A stretch of DNA of 64,000 bases, taken from the NCBI RefSeq assembly GCF_041248615.1, contig NZ_CP158426.1. One strand, written 5' to 3'. The notes under the pieces are model-generated. The model was not told the DNA's origin. It saw nothing but the letters and a program-made list of their open reading frames with translations, and made no database searches. Of this stretch, positions 3,467 to 31,699 are shown in pieces. This stretch comes from Escherichia coli. GTDB taxonomy: Bacteria; Pseudomonadota; Gammaproteobacteria; Enterobacterales; Enterobacteriaceae. A program made the translations under genes and the position numbers. How positions within the stretch are numbered: position 1 is the stretch's first letter; every line of letters starts with the position of its first letter.

Positions 3467-5048
3467 GTGGTGTTGTCTCCTCTTCCGGCCTACGACTCTC
3501 CGCTATCTGCTGCTGATACGCCTGCTCTATCCACACCGGACGTGAGAGTCCGGCTTTTTGCCGCTCAGCAGATTCCCTGACCTGCTGGCGGAAAATGTCC
3601 TGATAATCCTCGCCCATCAGCGCCAGCTCTTTCTCATACGTGCTCAGTCCGGCCTCAATGCGCATCACTGATTCCTGGACTTCCTTGAGCCCGTCAATGG
3701 CCATTCTTCCGGCACCAATCCACTCTGCCCGTGACCAGGCTGATCGCGCCTGATAAAAATCAAAACGTGCCCGTGGCGGACGAATAATCCCCCGAAGAAG
3801 TGCCTCTTCCAGCCAGCAGGAAAACATCTGCGTGGCCAGCCGGGCCGCAATAAATTTTCGCCGCCCCATAAAATAGCGCCACGACTCATTGGCGGAGGCG
3901 CGGGCACTTGAGTAACTGACCTTCGAGTAATCACGGGACAACTGTTCGTAGGAAACGCCAAGACCGGCGGCGATATACCGCAGCAGCGCCTGTTCAAGCG
4001 CAGAAAATCCATTGTCTGAATCCTGCGCAGTCTGTAGTTTCAGATCATCACCAGGGAAAAGGTGCGGAATTTTGACACCGCCCAGTGTCACGTTATTCGT
4101 GTCATACCAGCTGGAAAACTTCTCCAGAATATTAATAAGCGGATTATCCTTCTGCTCCTGTGGCGCGCCGGCGATATATTCAAAGGCCTTTTCGGTATCA
4201 AGTTCACTTTCAATCGTCGCTGCATACATCGCCTTCACTATGGCCGACTGAAGCTGTGTTGCCTGCAGGGAATCGAGCATCTTCAGCCGTTCCATGACGC
4301 TGTAAAACTGATTAGCCCCACGGGTCTGCCCGTCCTCCACCGGCTCGAAAATATGCAGCATGGCCGGACGCCCGGTGGGAAGTTCACGCGGGATCCGTTC
4401 CCATCGTCCACTACCAGAGAACGGAAAATCATCCTCACAGATATGGTACGCGACGGCACGGCCATATCGATCGACCTCCACACCGGCCCGCAGAAAACGG
4501 TTCCCCATACCGTGTCCAGGCGTGTCCACCCGTTTCGGACTCACGGCTTTAAAACGCGTACGGAATAACTGCGTGGTTTCCGTATCCCAGACCGGCTGCA
4601 CAAAGATTTCGCCGTTAAACGCATGAACGCCCACACCTTCACGGATAAATTCCGTGAACGTGCGTTTTCCTTCCACGTCGATCTCGCCAAACATCCCTTC
4701 GGCGTATTCCGACCAGGCCGCCTCCACCTCATCGACAAAGCTTTTTGCTGCGGTCTCCCGCATCCCCAGCCAGCGCCAGTTCGGACGGTAGCTGATCAGA
4801 AACATATGCCCGACAATGTGATCCTTATGCAGAGCCACCGCATTAGCCGCTATTCCGTTATTGCGCACCAGATCATCTGCCCGGGCATTCCCCAGACGCA
4901 ACGCGGGCAGCAGGGCCGCATCGGCACTCTGCGCCGGTGGCAACCACTCAGCCATTTGCCCGCCAAATCCTGCACCGCCCCCGTTGTAGCTGAGACTCTC
5001 ACGAAGCGGAACGCCGTTCACATCAATCAGGACAGGCGTTCGTTTCAT
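3456..5048 (-). CDS. portal protein (lambda gpB family)
   Basis: ORF 3456-5078; probable start MKRTPVLI at 5048, forming an ATGA overlap with the W stop; lambda gpB-like motifs (GANQFYSVME, LQSAIVKAMYAATIESELD, RMAIDGLKEVQE). Confidence 0.85.
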   Translation of the reverse strand: MKRTPVLIDVNGVPLRESLSYNGGGAGFGGQMAEWLPPAQSADAALLPALRLGNARADDLVRNNGIAANAVALHKDHIVGHMFLISYRPNWRWLGMRETAAKSFVDEVEAAWSEYAEGMFGEIDVEGKRTFTEFIREGVGVHAFNGEIFVQPVWDTETTQLFRTRFKAVSPKRVDTPGHGMGNRFLRAGVEVDRYGRAVAYHICEDDFPFSGSGRWERIPRELPTGRPAMLHIFEPVEDGQTRGANQFYSVMERLKMLDSLQATQLQSAIVKAMYAATIESELDTEKAFEYIAGAPQEQKDNPLINILEKFSSWYDTNNVTLGGVKIPHLFPGDDLKLQTAQDSDNGFSALEQALLRYIAAGLGVSYEQLSRDYSKVSYSSARASANESWRYFMGRRKFIAARLATQMFSCWLEEALLRGIIRPPRARFDFYQARSAWSRAEWIGAGRMAIDGLKEVQESVMRIEAGLSTYEKELALMGEDYQDIFRQQVRESAERQKAGLSRPVWIEQAYQQQIAESRRPEEETTPRET

Positions 5049-5251
5049 AACCTCACTCCCAGCGGACGACGGCGACACCGGGTTGTCCCCAGTACCGACT
5101 CCGCATCATTGATCGCCCGGTTAAGCTCATCCAGAGAAGCCGCCGTATATTCAATTCTGCGACCATCTTTCTGGACAGACACCACCCGTTTACCGGTTAA
5201 TAAATCAAGGCGCGCCTGACGCAGCGCCTGCAGTTCAGCGACTGTAACCAT
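5045..5251 (-). CDS. head-tail joining protein W
   Basis: 68-aa ORF, same length as lambda gpW, with GKRVVSVQKDGRR motif. Confidence 0.8.
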   Translation of the reverse strand: MVTVAELQALRQARLDLLTGKRVVSVQKDGRRIEYTAASLDELNRAINDAESVLGTTRCRRRPLGVRL

Positions 5252-7205
5252 TCACTCCTCCGGACAGCTTCGCTGCCAGTTCTTTAAGGGTTGGCCGGGT
5301 CGTCTCTTCTTCCCGGGATTTTGCCAGTACAGCCAGATCAAGCTGCCAGCGTTGCACGGACACACGTAATGCCGCGTAGGCATACACCAGGCAGTCCAGC
5401 GCTTCGTTACGCCGCTTTTTGTTATCCCACAGCAGACGCATCTTTCCTTTTTCCCACTTCTCCACAAGCTCTTCCGCGACCAGTTGCTGCGCCTCTGTCT
5501 GCGAAAAAATCTCCGGATCATCAGGAAAACGGATAGCATACGACGTGGCTTCATCCACAGGCGTGGGATCGGCTTTCATACGGGCATAGAGAATTTCTTT
5601 TGCGGTGTCCGTCCCCACTTCACACAGATACACGCCCCGCTGATTGCGGGTTTTTGGCATGGTGATCACCGGCTTGCCATAGACAGATGCGCCTTTTACC
5701 GGCAGCACCCGGAAAACACCGTGTTTTTTTGACCTCTGATAAACGATTTCGCCATCGATCCCCCCGATGTCCCAGCAGACACGGGAAATGGTCATTTCGG
5801 TTCCGTCTGCATGGCGGTATTTTTTGTTGATCGCCGCATCCACACGTAACAGCGTCTCTTCCTCATCGGGACGCCCCATAATGATGATTTTATCCACCAG
5901 AAAGGCTTCCTCTCCCGGAGCCCATCCCCAGACATACATCTCAAAACGGTTTCGCTGCGAGTCAATGCCCGCCGTCAGATAAACCACCCGGGCAGGCACC
6001 GCCGCCGTGTAACGCACAACCTTATCCATCAGCACCTGGTGATCGAGTTTTTCGCCCACAGCCTCTTCCCAGGTCTCGCCCAGCGTGGTGTTCACAAAGG
6101 TTTTCAGGCCGTTGGGATCTTTCAGTGCATCCAGCCAGTCATAGACAATCTGTACCCAGGTGGTGAACGGACTGTACGCCGTCCAGATATGGAAAGTGAT
6201 GGAGCGCGGCGGCGGAATTTCATCACCCCGGGCGCTGAAAAACATCAGGCCGTCACGGGTCCACATGCCCGTGTTTTCACAGATCCACCGCCCGTTACTC
6301 TGGTCAAGCTCAGACTGATGGATCACACAGCCATGATGCTCACAAAGGTAGAAAACACTTTCTGGCTTATTCTTCTCCCACTTAAGACCGAAAGGCGAGG
6401 CATCATCGCCAAATTTCAGATACTGCTCCTCCCCACAGTGCGGACAGGGCACATAAAAACGCATGAAGTGTGCCGACTCGTTAGCGGCTTTTTCGATCTG
6501 GCAGGAGCCTTTGATTTTAGGCGTCGAGCCGCGAATGGATTTTGGCCATACAGAGCCCTCAATACGTTTATCCCCCAGCAGGGTTGGCGAACCCTCTTTT
6601 TCAACATCCGGTTCGAACGAGGAAAGCTCGTCATAACAGACCACATCCACGGATTTTTCACGGTAGTTTTTTGCTGCCGCACCACCCAGACACCAGAACC
6701 CCACACCGGAGGAAAAACGCTTCAGGGTGAGCGTATTATCGCGGTGTTTTCTTCCGAACCATGGAGCCAGCTCCAGCAATGCAGGAACATCCCTTATCGT
6801 TGGCTCAACATGAGATTTCATAAAATCTTCAGCAGCTGAGTCCGTGGGCTGAAAAAGAAGGCTGTTGCGTGATTTATGCTCAATAAAATAAGCCTCCACT
6901 CCCAGCAACATCTTTGTATAACCAACACGGGCAGATTTAATCAGGTTAACCGTGCGAATCAGATCGTTGCCCATACAGTTCATGATGCCAACCTGAAACG
7001 GCAGTGTTTCCCATCGCCCCGGGGTATAAGACGACTCTTTAGGAAGGTAATAATGTTTATTGGCCCACTGAACTGTCGTCAGTGGAACAGGAATAATGAG
7101 AGATAAAAGCCCTGTAGCTATCGCACCGGCTGCATTAGCTGCCTTCTGCGCGTCTGAAATCATCGATCCACCCGCCCACGTTTTCACCGGCCTTAGCTGC
7201 AACAT
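5235..7205 (-). CDS. terminase large subunit (lambda gpA family)
   Basis: 656-aa ORF; motifs [43 protein letters not shown] as in lambda gpA. Confidence 0.9.
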
Positions 7206-7683
7206 TGGAGGCTTTCGCGATTTCAGTTTTCACCACATCAAGGTGTGATGGTGAAATGTCCGGATATTTACGCTGTAATGTCAACGGCACACGCACAAGT
7301 ATCCCCGAAATCTCCTGTGCCACACGTTGCAGAATGAAGGTAAACAGTTCAGTTTCCAGCACTACTCCGTCTTCACGGGCATTTTTCAGTTCCTGCGCAT
7401 CTGCCTGCGCTTTTGTGAGCCGGTAGCGTTCATAGTCAATGGTGCCGGGTTGTAAATCTGACTCCGCTGCCGCACGCAAATCGTCCAGTTCTTTGCGGAG
7501 CTTTTCGTTTTCGATATCAGTTTCCCTCTGCGCATACCACTGAATTGCCATGGCAGTATCAAATACAGATTCAATGCCCTTACTACCTTTGGAGGCGCAA
7601 GGGAGTCCCTGAGACTGCCAGCGTTCAATCGTCCGCGGGTCCACGTTGAAAATTTCGGCAAGCCTCTTTTTATTAACCTTCAT
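7135..7683 (-). CDS. terminase small subunit (lambda Nu1 family)
   Basis: 182-aa ORF; N-terminal [12 protein letters not shown]... and [21 protein letters not shown] motifs as in lambda Nu1; 3' end overlaps A. Confidence 0.9.
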
Positions 7684-7799: not shown

Positions 7800-7880
7800 A
7801 TTCGAGAAGTACCGACACGATTTTCCCTGAAAAATTTTCATAAATAGTGAAAAACCGCGAGGTCGCCGCCCCGTAACCTG
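7800..7880 (-). other. cos site (cosN core about 7860-7871 plus flanking terminase-binding region)
   Basis: minus strand reads GGGGCGGCGACCTCGCGGTTTTTCACTATTTATGAAAATTTTTCAGG, near-identical to the lambda cos sequence as I recall it; lies upstream of Nu1. Confidence 0.75.
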
Positions 7881-8019
7881 TTGGATCGACGGAAAGGACC
7901 CGAAAACGAGAATAATTATCACTTACAGCAAGAATCGAATCTGATCTATTATGGTGCTTGCTATTATGTGCCGGCACAAGTGCGTCGTTTACCGTCATTT
8001 CACACAGAGGCATCATCAA

Positions 8020-8271
8020 ATGAAAATCAGAAATATTCTCGCTATCTCCCTTGCGACATCATCCTTCAGTTGCCTGGCATTTAAATCCTCGCCCAATGTG
8101 CTACCAGGACCAACGAATCAACTAACTGCGGTAGAAAGTAAAATTATCGGACATTTTTATGCCCCACACAGTACATTACCCGGAACAACCATCACAGGGA
8201 CATGTGACGCCTCCCCCGTCCCGGGATGCACCTGTCCGTTTTGTACTATGCTGCGTAGCCAAAACCGATAA
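8020..8271 (+). CDS. hypothetical small secreted protein with Cys-rich C-terminus
   Basis: internal start MKIRNILAISLATSSFSCLA looks like a signal peptide; C-terminus TGTCDASPVPGCTCPFC; no family recognised; may be non-coding. Confidence 0.3.
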   Translation: MKIRNILAISLATSSFSCLAFKSSPNVLPGPTNQLTAVESKIIGHFYAPHSTLPGTTITGTCDASPVPGCTCPFCTMLRSQNR

Positions 8272-8634
8272 CATCCGCATTTACCTGGTATTCCATGATG
8301 AGTTCACGCAGCGACTGATAGAGGAAGGAAAGATGGTTAGTAAAAGCAAGGCGCATTGCCGCCGCATGCTGCAGGCATTGCAACAGACGAGAGCAGGTAT
8401 TTTTGACCAGTTGGAAAACTGCCAGCATACTTTGCCCGAGTATATCGCCATCTCATCGGAAACCAGTGCAACTCTTATTCATCGGGTTCCACCAGAGAAA
8501 AAGAAGAAATGAACAGTGAGGCGTTGTGTGGCATACAACGCCTTCTTCCATCATTCCTCGTCAGCCATGACAAAAATATAACCGCTGGCTCTTTCATTTT
8601 TCTCCTGCTTCCAGCCCCTCTCTACCTGGAAGCA

Positions 8635-8961
8635 TCAAGGACGTGACGGCGTAAAGATAAATTGTCTCTTCACTCCCTGACAGGGGCGATTCTTTTCAAA
8701 TCGCCATTTCGCCATGGCCTTCACCACTTCATCACGAAACAAATTATGAGGCTCTGAGCGGAGAAAAACGATCCGTGTCACAGTCCCATCAGCACCAATA
8801 TCGAACTTAACCTCAACCAGCCCCTTGATATAATTTGCTGCAGCATATTCCGGATATCGTGGATACACCGTCACTAATTGCCGGGGCTCATCAGCTTTTT
8901 GCTGCGAGCATCCCACTGCCAGGACAGATAACAGAAAAAGTAGTAAAAGGCGTCTTTTCAT
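8635..8961 (-). CDS. lipoprotein consisting of a TonB C-terminal-domain-like fold
   Basis: start MKRRLLLLFLLSVLAVGCSQQ (signal peptide plus lipobox, Ser at +2); remainder matches the TonB C-terminal domain pattern (YP..A....I.G.V.VKFD...DG.V.......S.P.N.F..EV..AM..WRFE) of E. coli TonB as I recall it. Confidence 0.55.
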   Translation of the reverse strand: MKRRLLLLFLLSVLAVGCSQQKADEPRQLVTVYPRYPEYAAANYIKGLVEVKFDIGADGTVTRIVFLRSEPHNLFRDEVVKAMAKWRFEKNRPCQGVKRQFIFTPSRP

Positions 8962-9444
8962 TTTTATTCCTACGGGTCTTATTCTGACAATATATCCTGT
9001 GTTCCAGACTGCCACATCACCACATCCTGTGCCATTATCTGACTCACATTACATACATCGCATCGGGATACAGTAGTAGCACTTTCTGTAATACAGCTTC
9101 CTGTTTCTTCCACCATCGCACCGGGATAAACCCGCGAATCATTAACGCGGTAAAAACCCGGTGTGCATCGTTTTTAATTATTCCCGCACACTCACGCAGA
9201 AGGAATTCCCCGTCGGGCTACGGTCATGGTTAATGCGGGAATACGGCGACGATACAGCGCAGCTAAAAGGGTAATGGACGGATAGACCGGTTTATTTCAT
9301 TCCACAGGATTCTGAGTGTCCCCAACTTCCTCCAATAGTCTGAGCCCACCTGTGTAGTTTTAATTTTCATCAATCCATTTAACTATCGTTTAATTTTCTA
9401 CACATACGATTCTGCGAACTTCAAAAAGCATCGGGAATAACACC

Positions 9445-9738
9445 ATGAAAAAAATGCTACTCGCTACTGCGCTGGCCCTGCTTATTACAGGATGTGCTCA
9501 ACAGACGTTTACTGTTCAAAACAAACCGGCAGCAGTAGCACCAAAGGAAACCATCACCCATCATTTCTTCGTTTCTGGAATTGGGCAGAAGAAAACTGTC
9601 GATGCAGCCAAAATTTGTGGCGGCGCAGAAAATGTTGTTAAAACAGAAACCCAGCAAACATTCGTAAATGGATTGCTCGGTTTTATTACTTTAGGCATTT
9701 ATACTCCGCTGGAAGCGCGTGTGTATTGCTCACAATAA
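9445..9738 (+). CDS. bor: Bor lipoprotein (serum-resistance family)
   Basis: 97-aa ORF MKKMLLATALALLITGCAQQ..., matches lambda Bor as I recall it. Confidence 0.9.
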   Translation: MKKMLLATALALLITGCAQQTFTVQNKPAAVAPKETITHHFFVSGIGQKKTVDAAKICGGAENVVKTETQQTFVNGLLGFITLGIYTPLEARVYCSQ

Positions 9739-9769
9739 TTGCATGAGTTGCCCATCGATATGGGCAACT

Positions 9770-10231
9770 CTATCTGCACTGCTCATTAATATACTTCTGG
9801 GTTCCTTCCAGTTGTTTTTGCATAGTGATCAGCCTCTCTCTGAGGGTGAAATAATCCCGTTCAGCGGTGTCTGCCAGTCGGGGGGAGGCTGCATTATCCA
9901 CGCCGGAGGCGGTGGTGGCTTCACGCACTGACTGACAGACTGCTTTGATGTGCAACCGACGACGACCAGCGGCAACATCATCACGCAGAGCATCATTTTC
10001 AGCTTTAGCATCAGCTAACTCCTTCGTGTATTTTGCATCGAGCGCAGCAACATCACGCTGACGCATCTGCATGTCAGTAATTGCCGCGTTCGCCAGCTTC
10101 AGTTCTCTGGCATTTTTGTCGCGCTGGGCTTTGTAGGTAATGGCGTTATCACGGTAATGATTAACAGCCCATGACAGGCAGACGATGATGCAGATAACCA
10201 GAGCGGAGATAATCGCGGTGACTCTGCTCAT
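9770..10231 (-). CDS. Rz: spanin inner-membrane subunit Rz
   Basis: ORF 9770-10243; start [15 protein letters not shown] at 10231 gives 153 aa, matching lambda Rz. Confidence 0.9.
9829..10011 (-). CDS. Rz1: spanin outer-membrane lipoprotein subunit Rz1 (embedded in Rz, +1 frame)
   Basis: 60-aa ORF with lipobox VVVGC and proline-rich stretch, embedded in Rz. Confidence 0.85.
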
Positions 10232-10725
10232 TGCTGACCCCACAAACAGATTTCACGCTCAATCTCACGACGAGTCATGAGACCTTTCCATTGCTTACCG
10301 CCAGCATATGTCCAGCGACGTAGCTGATCACATGCGCCTTTGATATCGCCCTGGTTTATTTTGCGAAGAAGCGTCGATGTTCTGAAATTGCCAGCACCCA
10401 CGTTGTAAACGAATGAGTAAAGAGCGCCGCGCATTGTTTCCGGTATATCGACTTTGATGTACGGGTTAATTTGTCTGGCGACCGTGGCAAGGTCTTTATT
10501 CAGGAGGGCTTTGCATTCTGCTTTGGTATACGTTTTACCGAGCATGATGTCTTTTCCTGTATGCCCGTGACATACAGTCCATACACCAACAATATCTTTG
10601 TATGGTATGTAGCTGACACCTTCCAGACCATCGTTACCACTTGGGCCAGTGATTAACACTGATGCTATAGCAATTGCTCCGCCACCAATAGCAGCAGCAA
10701 CGGCTTTTCGTAATGATGGAGGCAT
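10228..10725 (-). CDS. SAR endolysin (phage 21 R21 type, T4-lysozyme fold)
   Basis: 165-aa [30 protein letters not shown]... (signal-anchor-release N-terminus) with lysozyme motifs, matching phage 21 R as I recall it. Confidence 0.9.
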
Positions 10726-10940
10726 TATTCACCTCTCGCAGCCTTGCGCTTATCTTCTTTAATCTTGAAATAAAGGTTTGTCAGGTACGTCAGCAGGCCA
10801 AATACCAGGCTACCCAGCACACCTATTGCCGCCCACTGTGAGGGCGTGACTTTATCGAGCAACTGTAAAAACCAGTACCCGGCACTACCTGCTGAGGTAC
10901 CATAGGCGACACCCGTTGTTAACTTATCCATGGATTTCAT
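10725..10940 (-). CDS. pinholin (phage 21 S21 type)
   Basis: 71-aa ORF with two TM segments and charged C-terminus, directly upstream of the SAR endolysin. Confidence 0.85.
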
Positions 10941-11528
10941 AACCCCACCTCGCAGACAAAGCGGGTGTAAATTAAGGGGATACTACGTATCGCAATAAAG
11001 GCAGAAACGTAACAGATTCGGAGTCAGTGAATAACTCAGGTATTGGGTTATCAGCTAATATCGAGACTCAAAAAATGGAAAAACCCGCTCGACGGCGGGT
11101 TTAAGCTGTGTGACGAAGTAACCACTCTTAACAGCATAACCAATTTTTTACGTACGTAAACTACTAAATGATATTTGTGAGAATGCCACCGAGTGTTCAA
11201 AACACCACCACAAATGCATAAGAAAACTTCAACAAATAACCAGTTAATAATTTCCGATGTTATTTTTAGTTTGTTTAAATTAAGCTAAAGAATTATAGAG
11301 CACTTATAAATAAGTGCCATTAATATAAATTAGCTAATAGATTTATTTTTGTTCAGACAAGAGCCATGAATAGGATTAGATAGAAAAGGTTCAGATAAAA
11401 ATAGAGATCTACTTCACAAATTAAATGAGAAACTAAAACTTACATCTTGAAATAATCACATTGATTAGATGAATATTTATCGCGCAGTGACATCATTTTT
11501 TAATAATAGTTCAAAAAAAGGGCGTACA

Positions 11529-12611
11529 ATGAAAAAATTAACAGTGGCAATTTCTGCTGTAGCTGCATCAGTACTGATGGCGATGTCTGCTCAGGCAGCT
11601 GAAATTTATAATAAAGACAGTAACAAGCTGGATCTATACGGGAAAGTTAATGCCAAGCACTACTTCTCCTCTAATGATGCAGATGATGGTGATACTACTT
11701 ATGCCCGTCTTGGCTTCAAAGGTGAAACCCAAATCAACGATCAACTGACTGGTTTCGGTCAGTGGGAATATGAATTCAAAGGCAACCGTGCTGAATCTCA
11801 AGGTTCTTCCAAAGACAAAACCCGTCTTGCATTTGCAGGCCTGAAATTTGGTGATTACGGCTCAATCGATTACGGCCGTAACTACGGTGTAGCATACGAC
11901 ATCGGTGCGTGGACTGACGTTCTGCCAGAATTCGGTGGTGATACCTGGACCCAAACAGATGTGTTCATGACTGGTCGCACTACTGGTGTTGCAACTTATC
12001 GTAACAACGACTTCTTTGGTCTGGTCGATGGCCTGAACTTTGCTGCTCAGTATCAGGGTAAAAATGACCGCACTGACGTAACTGAAGCCAATGGTGATGG
12101 TTTCGGTTTCTCCACTACTTATGAGTATGAAGGATTCGGCGTGGGTGCAACCTATGCTAAATCAGATCGCACTGACGGTCAGGTCGCCTATGGTAAGAGC
12201 AAATTCAATGCCTCCGGCAAAAATGCGGAAGTATGGGCTGCAGGCCTGAAATATGATGCGAACAATATCTATCTGGCTACCACATATTCTGAAACTCAGA
12301 ATATGACCGTTTTTGGTAATAACCATATTGCAAACAAAGCACAAAACTTTGAAGCAGTAGCACAATATCAGTTTGACTTCGGTCTGCGTCCATCTGTTGC
12401 TTACCTTCAGTCAAAAGGTAAAGACCTTGGTGTTCATGGTGACCGAGACTTAGTCAAGTATGTCGATGTCGGTGCTACTTACTACTTTAATAAAAACATG
12501 TCCACTTTTGTTGATTACAAAATCAACTTAATTGACGATAGTAAGTTTACCAAAACAGCTGGTATTGATACCGACGACATCGTCGCTGTAGGTCTGGTTT
12601 ATCAGTTCTAA
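11529..12611 (+). CDS. OmpC/OmpF-family outer-membrane porin (prophage moron, NmpC/Lc type)
   Basis: ORF 11469-12611; start [23 protein letters not shown] at 11529 (signal peptide); porin motifs and C-terminal VGLVYQF; preceded by ~350 bp of AT-rich DNA; opposite in orientation to the late operon. Confidence 0.85.
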
Positions 12612-12799: not shown

Positions 12800-13183
12800 T
12801 CAATTAGAATTATTAGCAACGATATCCATATCTAACCGGATATCTAATGCCATTAACATCCCTTCAATTATGCCCTCAGCCTTCTGTAACCTTTTCCCGA
12901 TATAACCATCCGAGCAGCAATGCTTACTTGCCAGTGACATGAATGTCATACCACATACATAATAATCTACTAATAAATCGTGTAAATCGCTGTTGTTCTT
13001 TTTCAGACGGGCCATGCACCCGCAAATGATCATCGCGTCATCGTCACAACATTGCGGGCGAGATTTTACTTTTGAAGGAATTAATCCCTTAAAACCGGCG
13101 GCAATGGACGACCAGGTCACATCTTCATGATTATTAGCCGCCCACGCACCCCAACGCTCAAGAACCATCTGAATATCACGCAT
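12800..13183 (-). CDS. late antiterminator Q (DLP12 QuuD / phage 21 type)
   Basis: ORF 12800-13198; start [21 protein letters not shown] at 13183 gives 127 aa, matching QuuD-type Q as I recall it. Confidence 0.85.
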
Positions 13184-13268
13184 CAACTTACTCCACAAAA
13201 ATCAGACCAGAACGCCAATTACAAGCAAAAATCAACAAAACAGTATTAGTTGATTGTTATCTCTGACT

Positions 13269-18100: not shown

Positions 18101-18217
18101 ATGCCCTCCATAGTAAACACGAATAAAAAAATACAATATGTACTTTGCGAATACAAGTAAAAATACACATTGTGCATGGATGGTTCCAGTACAGAGCGTA
18201 ATAATAAGGACATGAAA
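18101..18217. promoter_or_regulatory. OR operator region with divergent PR and PRM promoters
   Basis: 117-bp AT-rich intergenic region between divergent cro and cI; contains TACAATATGTACTTTG, which shares AAGTACATAT with an OL-region element. Confidence 0.6.
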
Positions 18218-18871
18218 ATGAAATGGTATGAACTGGCTAGATCCAGAATGAAAGAGCTCGGCATAACTCAAGAGAAGTTAGCCGAAGAGCTAGGTATGAC
18301 GCAGGGTGGGATTGGACACTGGTTGCGCGGATCTCGTCATCCATCTCTTAGTGATATTGGTGTGGTGTTTAAATACCTTGGTATTGATAACATATCATTC
18401 AACCACGACGGGACATTTTCACCTGTTGGCGAATACTCATCGGCCCCAGTTAAAAAACAATATGAGTACCCTGTTTTTTCTCATGTTCAGGCTGGGATGT
18501 TCTCTCCAGAACTCAGAACCTTTACCAAAGGCGATGCGGAGAGATTGGTAAGCACAACCAAAAAAGCCAGTGACTCTGCATTCTGGCTTGAGGTTGAAGG
18601 TAACTCAATGACCGCACCAACAGGTTCCAAACCCAGCTTTCCTGACGGGATGTTAATTCTGGTTGACCCTGAGCAAGCTGTTGAGCCCGGCGATTTCTGC
18701 ATAGCCAGACTTGGTGGTGATGAATTTACCTTCAAGAAACTGATCAGGGATAGCGGTCAGGTGTTTCTACAGCCACTAAACCCACAATACCCAATGATCC
18801 CATGCAATGAGAGTTGTTCCGTTGTGGGGAAAGTTATCGCCAGCCAATGGCCTGAAGAGACGTTTGGGTGA
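18218..18871 (+). CDS. cI: CI repressor (non-lambda N-terminal HTH domain, lambda-type C-terminal S24 autocleavage domain)
   Basis: ORF 18170-18871; preferred start ATG 18218 (AAGGA 7 nt upstream; ATG 18212 also possible); C-terminal ~140 aa match lambda CI as I recall it; [11 protein letters not shown] parallels Cro TQGAIGHW. Confidence 0.85.
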
Positions 18872-18910: not shown

Positions 18911-19468
18911 TTGGCAAAAATAGATGATTATCAGCCAAGCCAAGTAGAAGTTGATAAAGTACTTTATTGTAAAAAAATAGTTAACTTTTCTGGCGTTAAA
19001 TGGAAACAGAAACCAAGTCGCTCTGATATGTGGCTACAAGCCCATATCATCCCCTTGGATGAGGATTGTATACCTATACAAGGGCTAAAGTTTGAACTGA
19101 AATGGAAACCAGATCAGGATTCAGAACCTGATGACCCGATTTCTTACCCTAAAATAAATATTATTGCTTTCTATCATAACAAGAGGGTTTTCGCGGTAGA
19201 TACCTATCACTTTGACAAACACACGAATAGTTACAAGGTCGATCATCCGAAGTACCAAGATATCATTTACGGTGCTCACTACCATGTATACTATGAAGAA
19301 GCTGGATACTATAGTGATAGAATAGCGTTTCCAATCGAAGATGACATAAACCCAGATGACCTGGTAGGGTATTGGAATTACTTCTGTAAACATCTGAACA
19401 TAACTTACTCTGGGAGAATACCTTTACCGCTTGAAGATGAGTCGGGGCAAATGGGGTTTGGAATATGA
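18911..19468 (+). CDS. hypothetical protein A of the cI-proximal insert (rexA position)
   Basis: 185-aa ORF, probable TTG start, AT-rich codon usage, no family recognised, no obvious TM segments. Confidence 0.6.
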   Translation: MAKIDDYQPSQVEVDKVLYCKKIVNFSGVKWKQKPSRSDMWLQAHIIPLDEDCIPIQGLKFELKWKPDQDSEPDDPISYPKINIIAFYHNKRVFAVDTYHFDKHTNSYKVDHPKYQDIIYGAHYHVYYEEAGYYSDRIAFPIEDDINPDDLVGYWNYFCKHLNITYSGRIPLPLEDESGQMGFGI

Positions 19469-20217
19469 TGTGCTCAACAGTGATCTCACAACTAGGTTTC
19501 GAATGCCATCCAATAGGCAAGACCTTGAGAATTATCAGTCCATTCACTTACTGTGATGATGGAGAGCATGTCGGTGCCTTTATCCGTGAAGTCAATGGTA
19601 GGTATTTAGTTAGTGACAGATGCGATGCCTTAATGAATATGGAGGCAAGAGGGATCTCGCTTACCAAAAAACGACTTGATGAGATACGACAATTACTGCT
19701 TAAAGAAGGCGCAGAACTCAATGCTCGAGGAGAAATCATTGCTTGGGCAACAGAAAAGGATGTCGGTGCGATTACATCGAACATAATTAGAGCTGGTATA
19801 CTCGCATCAACTTTGTCGTTAGACTGGTATCAGCCAGTTCAAGCTGAAAAGTTTGAAAGTATGGTTATTGATTATCTATATCACACAGAGCTTAGAGACG
19901 CACTTTCTCTTCGTGAAAACGTATATGGCTTGAGTGGACATCAAATTACCGTCCCTGTAACAATAAAAACCGACATACCTAAATACGTTTTTACATCAAG
20001 CGTGAAACACGGAGGAAGCTGGAATAGTGCTTACTCATTGCTTGGGAAACTAATTGATCTTAAAGCTTCAAGTGAGGAGTATAACAACAGATTTGTTGTT
20101 ATAGACAGCGAAGCAATTGGTGATCAAATGCAACAACTCTCCTTACTCTTCCATGAATCAAGCCAAGTTCTACCATTCTCCAAAAGAGAGACTTGGGTTA
20201 AGAGACTTGCAGCATAA
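19465..20217 (+). CDS. hypothetical protein B of the cI-proximal insert (rexB position)
   Basis: 250-aa ORF with ATGATG start overlapping the stop of ORF A (ATGA overlap); AT-rich; no family recognised. Confidence 0.65.
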   Translation: MMCSTVISQLGFECHPIGKTLRIISPFTYCDDGEHVGAFIREVNGRYLVSDRCDALMNMEARGISLTKKRLDEIRQLLLKEGAELNARGEIIAWATEKDVGAITSNIIRAGILASTLSLDWYQPVQAEKFESMVIDYLYHTELRDALSLRENVYGLSGHQITVPVTIKTDIPKYVFTSSVKHGGSWNSAYSLLGKLIDLKASSEEYNNRFVVIDSEAIGDQMQQLSLLFHESSQVLPFSKRETWVKRLAA

Positions 20218-20942: not shown

Positions 20943-21524
20943 TTACTTGTTTTTGCCATGCTTATCCTGAGCGATAAGTTCATCCATAAGGCTGTCTGCC
21001 TTCCCGGCAAACCTAATGTAGCACTCATGTCTATAGCTTTCAGGGATAACGAAACGGTCGGTATCAGGATATCCAACAGCAGGAGGCCTTCGAACGAGGA
21101 GTCCTTTTTTGAGCAATGAAATTGATTCATGAGCGCCCTTTTCCGTTTGTAGCTGGTTATTAGCGGCTACAGCGAATGCCAAATACGCTCTTTCTCCAAG
21201 AGTTAACGAATCAAACAAATCTTGCACATATTTTTCTTCTTTAGATTTGCGCTTCTGAGCAGCGAATACCTCAATTCTTTCAGTCACAGCGTGATAAGCG
21301 GAATTAACAACGCCGTTAAGCACATAGCTAACGCAAAACAACAGGATGTAATACATCCAGTAATGAGGAAGGATTTCTGGACTATGCAGGTTTATCCATT
21401 CTTTTACGCTTACCGGCATAACAATAATCAATATGATCAGGATGATTAGCATATGAATCAACTGTTTAAGTGTCATTCCTTGCAGGAAAAAATGCATTAG
21501 TTCCTGCCACCATGAGTTGTTCAT
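20943..21524 (-). CDS. sieB: superinfection exclusion protein SieB-like (membrane protein)
   Basis: 193-aa ORF MNNSWWQELMHFFLQGMTLKQLIHMLIILIILIIVMPV with TM segments, antisense immediately downstream of N. Confidence 0.6.
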   Translation of the reverse strand: MNNSWWQELMHFFLQGMTLKQLIHMLIILIILIIVMPVSVKEWINLHSPEILPHYWMYYILLFCVSYVLNGVVNSAYHAVTERIEVFAAQKRKSKEEKYVQDLFDSLTLGERAYLAFAVAANNQLQTEKGAHESISLLKKGLLVRRPPAVGYPDTDRFVIPESYRHECYIRFAGKADSLMDELIAQDKHGKNK

Positions 21525-30448: not shown

Positions 30449-31699
30449 TTACATATTCTTGATGATCGCATCACCAAACTCTGAACATTTCAGCAGCTTA
30501 GCGCCTTCCATCAGACGTTCGAAGTCATAGGTTACGGTCTTCGCATTGATTGCGCCTTCCATACCTTTAACAATCAGGTCTGCGGCTTCAGTCCAGCCCA
30601 TATGGCGCAGCATCATCTCAGCGGAGAGAATAATAGAGCCAGGGTTAACTTTGTCCTGACCGGCATATTTCGGCGCAGTACCGTGGGTGGCTTCAAACAG
30701 GGCGCATTCGTCACCGATGTTTGCGCCTGGGGCGATACCGATACCGCCGACCTGTGCAGCCAGAGCGTCAGAAATGTAGTCACCGTTCAGGTTCATACAG
30801 GCGATAACATCATATTCAGCCGGACGCAGCAGGATCTGTTGCAGGAATGCATCAGCAATCACATCTTTAATGACGATCTCTTTGCCGGTATTCGGGTTTT
30901 TAACTTTCAGCCACGGGCCGCCGTCGATCAGTTCACCGCCAAACTCTTCACGCGCCAGCTGGTAGCCCCAGTCTTTAAACGCGCCTTCGGTGAACTTCAT
31001 GATGTTGCCTTTGTGCACCAGGGTCACAGAGTCACGATCGTTAGCAATTGCGTATTCGATCGCGGCACGGACCAGACGTTTGGTGCCTTCTTCAGAACAC
31101 GGCTTAATACCGATACCGCAATGTTCCGGGAAGCGAATTTTCTTCACGCCCATCTCTTCACGCAGGAATTTAATCACTTTCTCGGCGTCGGCAGAGTCAG
31201 CTTTCCATTCGATACCCGCATAAATGTCTTCCGAGTTTTCACGGAAGATAACCATATCGGTCAGTTCAGGATGTTTAACCGGGCTTGGGGTGCCCTGATA
31301 GTAACGTACCGGACGCAGGCAGATGTAGAGATCCAGTTCCTGGCGCAGGGCAACGTTCAGAGAACGAATACCGCCACCAACCGGAGTGGTCAGAGGGCCT
31401 TTAATGGCAACGCGATATTCACGAATCAGATCAAGGGTTTCAGCAGGCAGCCAGACATCCTGACCATAAACCTGTGTGGATTTTTCACCGGTGTAAATTT
31501 CCATCCAGGAGATTTTACGCTCGCCTTTATAGGCTTTCTCGACTGCAGCGTCGACCACTTTCAGCATGGCTGGGGTTACATCTACACCGATTCCATCACC
31601 TTCAATGTAAGGGATAATCGGATTTTCAGGAACGTTGAGTTTGCCGTTTTGCAGGGTGATCTTCTTGCCTTGTGCCGGAACAACTACTTTACTTTCCAT
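30449..31699 (-). CDS. icd: isocitrate dehydrogenase (NADP), with prophage-associated 3' end
   Basis: 416-aa ORF, full-length Icd; C-terminal residues ...[20 protein letters not shown]. Confidence 0.95.

Follow-up and report, generated by a model that had tools for sequence, protein, structure and literature searches.

A prophage lipoprotein consisting of a free-standing TonB C-terminal domain, and its proposed competition for TonB boxes

We describe a 108-amino-acid (aa) lipoprotein encoded on the minus strand of a lambdoid prophage of Escherichia coli (NCBI RefSeq assembly GCF_041248615.1, contig NZ_CP158426.1); the whole stretch analysed, 64,000 nucleotides (nt) long, is called the window. 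The prophage is inserted at icd (30449..31699), the attachment site of phage 21, and the gene for the lipoprotein lies between its lysis cassette and cos. The protein proved to be an outer-membrane-type lipoprotein that is a free-standing TonB C-terminal domain (CTD), and the architecture claimed in a preliminary description of this DNA is thus fully supported. The sequence itself is already known and annotated (phage 21, CP-933N-type prophages, about 30% of complete E. coli genomes); what would be new is the function proposed for it, one more form of the known exclusion by outer-membrane lipoproteins. We suggest tentatively, with slightly more doubt than confidence, that the outer-membrane-tethered, energy-uncoupled TonB CTD competes for TonB boxes and so blocks TonB-dependent entry.

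A TonB C-terminal domain behind a lipoprotein signal

The Pfam TonB_C profile, a search against which had been proposed as a check, matched residues 33-99 (PF03544, E 9.1e-13, score 48.9), and TIGR01352 scored 47.4 bits against a curated cutoff of 27.1. E. coli TonB CTD chains (1u07, 1xx3, 2gsk, 2grx) matched residues 23-103 with E about 1e-14, and the alignment obtained with them was the same position-by-position alignment that the preliminary description had given. The PRK10819 TonB equivalog models reached 45-69 bits against cutoffs of 265-448, with only the C-terminal ~80 positions matched, and the 108-aa protein has neither the N-terminal membrane anchor, nor the proline-rich spacer, nor the ~240-aa length of a genuine TonB. 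To judge from its sequence, a role as energy transducer through ExbB/ExbD is implausible. An AlphaFold2 model, the second check proposed, showed the alpha/beta fold of the TonB CTD with a predicted local distance difference test score (pLDDT) of 93-98 over the domain. Compared with 1u07_A, 2gsk_B and 2grx_C in Foldseek, it gave a root-mean-square deviation of 0.6-1.0 Å over 72-77 columns (template-modelling score, by target, 0.84-0.90; 40% identity).

In an alignment of 24 sequences that included genuine TonB C-termini, P34, Y36, G47, G59, P71, F75 and W86 were invariant; these are the equivalents of the TonB YP motif, G174, G186, P198, F202 and W213, and F52, F88 and F103 occupy the positions of TonB F180, Y215 and F230. 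The phage protein corresponds to TonB ~153-235, about the portion that is ordered in the FhuA and BtuB complexes (observed chains of 78-81 residues). Strand β3 is present (V97-F103), and it is TonB β3 that pairs with the transporter TonB box in 2GSK and 2GRX. Past this strand TonBs run on with (K/R)-(I/L)-N-G-x-x-x-x, which forms β4, whereas phage-type proteins stop after 3-8 further residues, often with prolines (TPSRP, SPSAP, QAPSD). The phage protein, with 4-6 residues beyond β3 in a proline-containing tail (TPSRP / SPSAP), has no β4. According to the model, the TonB-box-binding edge of β3 is thereby left uncovered.

The N-terminus, MKRRLLLLFLLSVLAVGC followed by SQQ, fits the PROSITE-type lipobox rule (regular-expression match) with Ser at +2, which bears out the earlier reading of a lipoprotein signal. 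Its layout is MKRR-L8-...LAVG/C-S (the slash precedes the lipid-modified Cys), a basic and hydrophobic stretch followed by the lipobox, with no Asp at +2. The rule was satisfied in all nine protein variants from 80 viral loci (the best 80 IMG/VR loci, which made up our viral-contig sample), and the lipobox with a non-Asp +2 residue was retained from 100% down to 41% identity. Twelve of 16 more distant short homologs had a lipobox (by regular expression or inspection) with A, S or T and never Asp at +2; the remaining four had a type I signal peptide only. By the lipobox and +2 criterion the protein would thus be of the outer-membrane type, and its localisation is predicted on that ground.

The open reading frame (ORF) lies where first placed, at 8635..8961 on the minus strand, with its ATG at 8961..8959, its stop codon at 8635..8637 and the same translation. 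A longer, GTG-initiated version from 9015 also appears in the mechanical ORF list. Of the two starts the ATG at 8961 is the credible one: AGGA stands 6 nt upstream of it, and a textbook signal peptide begins there; the phage 21 annotation has the same start and ribosome-binding site (RBS).

Distribution, selection and conserved position

In phage 21 the same protein (100% identity) is encoded by CPT_21_73, annotated 'TonB C-terminal domain protein', and phages ev017, Perceval and PhiR47_2 have it too. A 601-nt region around the gene was present in 1,224 of 5,426 complete E. coli genomes, Nissle 1917 among them (in 1,202 at 99% identity or more), and among the matches listed for this region all were annotated 'TonB family protein'. 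A second allele, 72% identical in protein and carried by Stx1a phages, JLK-2012 and O157/O55 prophages, was found in 415 further complete E. coli genomes. Together the two alleles occur in 22.6% + 7.6% of complete E. coli genomes, strains of the extraintestinal pathogenic (ExPEC) type and Nissle 1917 included. Nissle 1917 has the same icd-inserted arrangement as the window prophage. Its prophage is probably defective, since beside icd only a truncated integrase remains, bordered by an IS3-family element (Nissle locus L004 32441-34723); the TonB_C gene of this prophage is still intact. A full-text literature search found no study of the function of the TonB_C lipoprotein, which fits the earlier remark that this architecture was not known as an exclusion factor; the paper announcing the phage 21 genome is silent on the gene.

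The gene is under strong purifying selection and is maintained rather than decaying. Between the two alleles the proportion of synonymous differences (pS) was 0.65, so that synonymous sites are saturated, while the nonsynonymous rate (dN) was 0.18 and dN/dS 0.12, with similar dN/dS in signal peptide and domain. All 80 viral-contig copies were intact at exactly 108 aa, with the lipobox. Every viral locus that reached far enough had Rz upstream and terminase downstream, all on the same strand as the TonB_C gene, and this placement after Rz was common to two packaging modules, one of the lambda type (Nu1/A) and one with HNH and TerS/TerL. A Klebsiella prophage homolog of 41% identity (lipobox LLLGC/S) had the same placement, and in a further lineage, at 44% identity, the gene lay between a DUF2514 Rz-like gene and HNH/terminase. 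The position after the spanins, co-oriented with the late operon, was thus seen in at least four phage lineages.

The viral-contig scan and a word-indexed protein search gave almost only the two E. coli alleles; the diversity described here came from a HMMER scan of 1.84 billion protein representatives, with 2,795 matches at E<=1e-3. Among the best 150 of these 2,795 were about 20 short proteins (98-152 aa) with a single domain, and in most of these the alignment began at residue 1. Secreted stand-alone TonB_C proteins therefore form a broader family, of which phages carry one branch. Chromosomal members (for example P0041, P0050, P0071 and P0117) likewise consist of a signal or lipoprotein peptide and a single TonB_C domain (107-133 aa, 31-42% identity). 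Unlike the phage gene, P0041 and P0050 stand in non-phage chromosomal neighbourhoods (ahpC/GST/GGDEF and acetyltransferase/PTS, respectively; two contigs read), and some chromosomal relatives, unlike the phage lipoprotein, have a type I signal peptide only. Some also extend further at the C-terminus, up to a shared G-x-(V/L)P(F/Y)R motif; the ends of P0041, P0085, P0120 and P0071 read LLPYR, GVPFR, GVPFR and LLPSRK, and the extension is absent from the phage branch and from genuine TonBs. Separately, a PHROG with no assigned function, phrog_34172, was matched at profile positions 162-242 of 251, as in a full-length TonB (~250 aa), and some phages appear to encode complete TonB-like proteins too.

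Proposed function and alternatives

The proposed competition would work as follows. A 12-residue tether would hold the folded domain just below the periplasmic face of the outer-membrane barrels, where it would occupy the TonB boxes of transporters such as FhuA, BtuB, FepA and Cir, each box adding as a β-strand to the exposed β3 edge of the domain, and it may also catch the TonB boxes of incoming group B colicins. Having no membrane anchor, proline-rich spacer or ExbBD coupling, the domain would be unable to deliver energy, and it would act as a natural dominant-negative in competition with scarce genuine TonB. The expected outcome is a broad block of TonB-dependent entry, affecting T1- and phi80-type phages, group B colicins and TonB-dependent microcins, with siderophore and B12 uptake blocked alongside. 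Since the gene comes after the spanins and runs in the direction of the late operon, the Q-antiterminated late transcript must, on the evidence of gene order and as in lambda, cross it, and its expression is probably late-lytic. The domain would then be made mainly, and abundantly, in lytic growth, and could shield roughly 30-40 min of virion assembly from rival phages that grow fast; some low-level expression in the lysogen may come from a weak promoter of the gene itself. The cost to iron and B12 uptake anticipated in the preliminary description would not apply under late-lytic expression, because the cell is already committed to lysis.

This proposal is plausible because the core residues of the TonB CTD are kept, the β3 edge is modelled as uncovered, the FhuA TonB box was modelled as a β-strand in a fusion with the protein (below) and laboratory fragments offer a precedent. 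Exported fragments of TonB, in the work of Howard and colleagues, reportedly inhibit phi80 infection and colicin M killing. Such periplasmic fragments, exported in vivo, also inhibit TonB-dependent iron import (Howard et al., 2001, PMID 11566987, as cited in PMC9841981). Outer-membrane lipoproteins are an established class of exclusion factor, as exemplified by Cor and by T5 Llp, which acts on FhuA (bioRxiv 10.64898/2026.03.26.714494).

TonB-box binding was probed in silico with an AlphaFold2 fusion of the mature phage protein, a 25-residue Gly/Ser linker and the FhuA N-terminal peptide AVEPKEDTITVTAAPAPQES. The TonB box DTITVT was modelled as a β-strand (residues 122-127, block pLDDT 81) with the linker below 50, in a design that had no scrambled-peptide control and whose TonB control stayed undocked. 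This outcome fits a β3 edge that lies open and unprotected in the phage protein, for which we take it as weak evidence.

Several points weigh against the proposal. The same fusion made with E. coli TonB 152-239 left the FhuA peptide in a non-strand state and did not reproduce the known complex; the crystallographic pairing was missed because TonB's own β4 (TEIQ, residues 86-89) stayed in place. In the phage fusion AlphaFold may perhaps just have filled the vacant β4 slot with the FhuA peptide. The contact side chains of E. coli TonB are replaced, mostly by Tyr (Q160 by Y33, R166 by Y39, R171 by Y44), so that TonB-box binding cannot be assumed from homology alone. The chromosomal, non-phage relatives suggest a more general cellular role. 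To win against TonB at transporters numbering in the thousands, the decoy would have to be present in large amounts, and the full-text literature search found no experimental work on the TonB_C lipoprotein. The native receptor of phage 21 is LamB, so any exclusion would be aimed at other phages (T1-, phi80-like) and the benefit to phage 21 would be indirect. Finally, the phage protection given by NC-SV, an icd-integrated, phage 21-like prophage of strain NC101, has been attributed to a small RNA acting on lamB; the NC-SV paper makes no mention of the TonB_C gene and its text names no siderophore or iron-uptake genes, and its result neither supports nor excludes a role of the gene in lysogens.

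Self-exclusion by the lipoprotein was considered and ruled out on account of LamB being the receptor of phage 21. A catalogued defence system was likewise ruled out, PADLOC-DB giving 0 families at E<=1. As a matter of method, the failure of the linker fusion on genuine TonB is a caution for the use of such fusions as binding tests.

A more far-reaching form of the proposal is that such proteins make up a previously unrecognised and very common phage exclusion or immunity class, outer-membrane-tethered TonB mimics 'pre-opened' by the loss of β4, made from the late operon and sequestering at one stroke the TonB boxes of every TonB-dependent transporter and of incoming group B colicins; this we hold to be less likely than not.

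The protein could instead be a lysogenic-conversion factor like Bor/Iss, expressed in lysogens and serving, in place of phage exclusion, in serum resistance, adhesion, iron signalling or protection from TonB-dependent microcins and colicins in the gut, which we think unlikely; its colicin and microcin part overlaps with competition for TonB boxes. The gene adjoins iss/bor, it has the wide distribution given above, ExPEC-type strains and Nissle 1917 included, and in the Nissle prophage it is intact despite the truncated integrase, next to which an IS element lies. Promoter-like sites were found 17-33 nt upstream of the start codon in three other lineages, and the weak -10 candidate in the window aligns with a better one in the 72% allele (Table 1); lysogenic expression from its own promoter is weakly indicated by these sequences. 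The sites of the other lineages are, however, only 9/12 matches in AT-rich DNA, and in the window a strict scan found no sense-strand sigma-70 promoter, a relaxed scan gave only 8/12 matches, and the best Fur-box match upstream of the gene (11/19) was not meaningful. A constitutive TonB blockade would moreover be costly for iron-limited pathogens.

An improbable alternative has the tethered domain target the Ton machinery itself, shutting down the TonB system through non-productive heterodimers with the TonB CTD, which would hold TonB at the outer membrane, or through binding of ExbD. Fragments of the TonB CTD form dimers in crystals (1u07, 1ihr and 1qxx are among the matches), and the edge strand of TonB itself could pair with the open β3 edge of the phage domain. 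Howard and colleagues are said to have offered mixed dimers as an alternative account of their dominant-negative effect. The dimers are disputed, to go by the title of PMC3005593 ('The TonB Dimeric Crystal Structures Do Not Exist In Vivo'), and with a tether as short as 12 residues the domain would stay at the outer membrane, well away from ExbD.

Equally improbable, in our estimate, is an accessory envelope or lysis factor, in which the TonB_C fold would bind peptidoglycan or outer-membrane proteins (Lpp, OmpA) and so change how outer membrane and cell wall touch before the spanins act, or could shift pinholin timing via the load on the proton-motive force. The gene is the first after the spanins and co-oriented with them in the viral loci and in the four phage lineages, and it matches PHROG 1267, labelled 'Rz-like spanin', with E 5e-43 (window 8638-8961). 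Contacts of the TonB CTD with peptidoglycan and with outer-membrane proteins other than receptors have been reported. Against this, the phages examined already have a full two-component spanin (Rz/Rz1 in phage 21; an i-spanin with an overlapping lipobox ORF, L002 4344..4571, in Klebsiella), the protein is globular and no short Pro-rich o-spanin, its position is a classical 'moron' site as for bor, and lambda lyses well without any such gene. Identity as a spanin was ruled out by the complete spanin pairs in every lineage checked and by the globular TonB_C domain; the 'Rz-like spanin / lysis' label of PHROG 1267 is probably a positional annotation error that will pass to new phage genomes.

A non-functional leftover, that is, a tonB fragment picked up by a phage as database names suggest ('Partial tonB-like membrane protein', 'TonB fragment', 'truncated TonB-like'), is very improbable, given a dedicated lipoprotein signal in place of the TonB N-terminus kept down to 41% identity and an identity to E. 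coli TonB of only ~40%, which argues against recent capture; a degenerate fragment is ruled out by the dN/dS of 0.12 across alleles with saturated synonymous sites and by the 80/80 intact viral copies.

If the lipoprotein does compete for TonB boxes, one 108-aa protein would confer broad resistance to TonB-dependent phages, colicins and microcins, with an iron-starvation cost only in a lysis-committed cell. It would be the first natural inhibitor of the energy-coupling step common to all TonB-dependent transporters, as opposed to one receptor, and its chromosomal relatives would point to a wider natural throttling of TonB-dependent uptake. Phage competition and the prediction of host range in phage therapy would be affected, because FhuA, BtuB, FepA or similar transporters serve as receptors for many siphophages, therapeutic ones and models alike. 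The proposal would also bear on colicin and microcin ecology in the gut, including that of the probiotic Nissle 1917 with its identical gene, and on antibiotic targeting of the TonB/TonB-box interface, as treated in PMC9841981. Even if it is wrong, there remain a gene under strong purifying selection in about 30% of complete E. coli genomes and a spanin mislabel in PHROGs.

Local features and comparison with known systems

The minus-strand gene order is Q, pinholin S, SAR (signal-anchor-release) endolysin R, Rz/Rz1, the TonB_C gene, cos, Nu1 and A (Table 1), and window positions 10300..7872 are 98% identical to the right end of phage 21. The location first given for the gene, between the lysis cassette (10940..9770) and cos (~7872) and next to bor (9445..9738), holds. 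Directly upstream lies a 45-aa ORF (8979..9116) that has no PHROG match and of which just the first ~10 codons are conserved in the other allele.

Table 1. Positions in the window of the TonB_C lipoprotein gene, its parts and neighbouring features.
Feature	Position	Strand	Basis or remark
TonB_C lipoprotein gene, 108 aa	8635..8961 (incl. stop)	-	ORF and translation; identical to phage 21 CPT_21_73 / UMO75484.1 and Nissle WP_000830178.1
Signal peptide (residues 1-17) and lipid-modified Cys18; lipobox LAVG/C, Ser at +2	8908..8961	-	Sequence and lipobox regular expression
TonB C-terminal domain, residues 24-103	8653..8892	-	Pfam, TIGR01352, PDB TonB, predicted fold
Pfam TonB_C core, residues 33-99	8665..8865	-	PF03544 match
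Shine-Dalgarno AGGA	8968..8971	-	6 nt before ATG; RBS placed here by phage 21 annotators
Weak candidate TG-extended -10, TGTCAGAAT	8981..8989	-	Aligns with better TGTTAGAAT of 72% allele
45-aa upstream ORF, hypothetical	8979..9116	-	ORF list, phage 21 comparison; phage 21 CPT_21_72 equivalent
Non-coding element, >93% identity between two allele loci	9150..9261 (L003 ~3674-3830)	.	Alignment
bor/iss serum-resistance lipoprotein gene	9445..9738	+	Opposite orientation to TonB_C gene
i-spanin Rz	10243..9770	-	Phage 21-type lysis cassette
Embedded o-spanin Rz1	10011..9829	-	Phage 21-type lysis cassette
SAR endolysin R	10725..10228	-	Phage 21-type lysis cassette
Pinholin S	10940..10725	-	Phage 21-type lysis cassette (cassette 9770..10940)
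Q antiterminator	13198..12800	-	
cos cohesive-end sequence GGGCGGCGACCT	about 7858..7873	-	Phage 21 right genome end maps to about 7872
Terminase small subunit Nu1	7683..7135	-	Next late genes downstream of cos
Terminase large subunit A	7205..5235	-	Next late genes downstream of cos

The non-coding element at 9150..9261 is more conserved between the alleles than the gene itself (~73% identical). A structured RNA leader in this ~110-170 nt upstream element was considered; Rfam gave nothing (gathering threshold or E<=1) and the fold z-score was only -2.2. The idea was dropped because the element is the bor-promoter region, which 432 phage records contain; in two of these, lambda and HK629, the predicted bor promoter lies within it and faces away from the TonB_C gene. 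It persists in loci without bor, such as JLK-2012 and allele-A loci in which Rz ends 320 nt upstream, and looks like a conserved recombination junction or promoter remnant.

Three further features of the prophage were recorded. A full-length OmpC/NmpC-like porin gene (11469..12611, plus strand) lies between Q and the holin, antisense to the late operon; RefSeq calls it 'porin OmpC', and PHROG 410, to which it belongs, is labelled 'unknown function'. It is one of the classical accessory genes of lambdoid phages and could alter receptor display for OmpC-dependent phages. Downstream of a cI-like repressor (18170-18871), at the position of lambda rexAB, a co-transcribed plus-strand pair (18911-19468 and 19465-20217) matches the PADLOC candidate system PDC-M24 (M24A E 5e-4, M24B E 5e-10); the second gene is a DUF1828 protein in the Nissle annotation, and by sequence match the pair is likely a prophage-encoded defence pair. 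A minus-strand ORF of 193 aa (20943-21524) is the counterpart, by position and length, of the Nissle superinfection exclusion protein B (sieB-like, RefSeq).

The E. coli TonB CTD (residues ~150-239; 1U07, 1XX3, 2GSK, 2GRX) shares with the phage lipoprotein its family, fold, conserved core and aromatics at ~40% identity. The phage protein differs in lacking the N-terminal anchor, the proline-rich spacer, the ExbB/ExbD link and β4, in the replacement of Q160, R166 and R171, and in a predicted lipid anchor in the opposite (outer) membrane. Bor/Iss of lambdoid phages is likewise an outer-membrane lipoprotein encoded by an accessory gene between the lysis genes and cos, but its sequence is unrelated, its gene runs the other way and has a promoter of its own that serves in lysogens, and it is known for its role in serum resistance. 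The constructs of Howard and colleagues reportedly joined the FecA signal sequence to TonB 33-239, 103-239 or 122-239. Like the phage protein, laboratory fragments of this kind, as cited in PMC9841981, are periplasmic TonB CTDs without the energy-coupling part, and they are dominant-negative for TonB-dependent uptake; they are artificial, soluble and overexpressed, whereas the phage protein is natural, lipid-tethered by its signal, shorter and under purifying selection. T5 Llp and the Cor proteins of phi80, N15 and HK022 are small phage outer-membrane lipoproteins that act, as is proposed for the TonB_C lipoprotein, from the periplasmic side on a TonB-dependent transporter, FhuA in their case. 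PHROG profiles, among which only 1267 and 34172 matched strongly and the others at the noise level of signal peptides, showed no relation to Cor or Llp, with no pairwise Cor/Llp comparison made. Only one receptor is inactivated by Llp and Cor; a decoy for TonB boxes would reach every TonB-dependent transporter at once, through the energy-coupling motif that they have in common.

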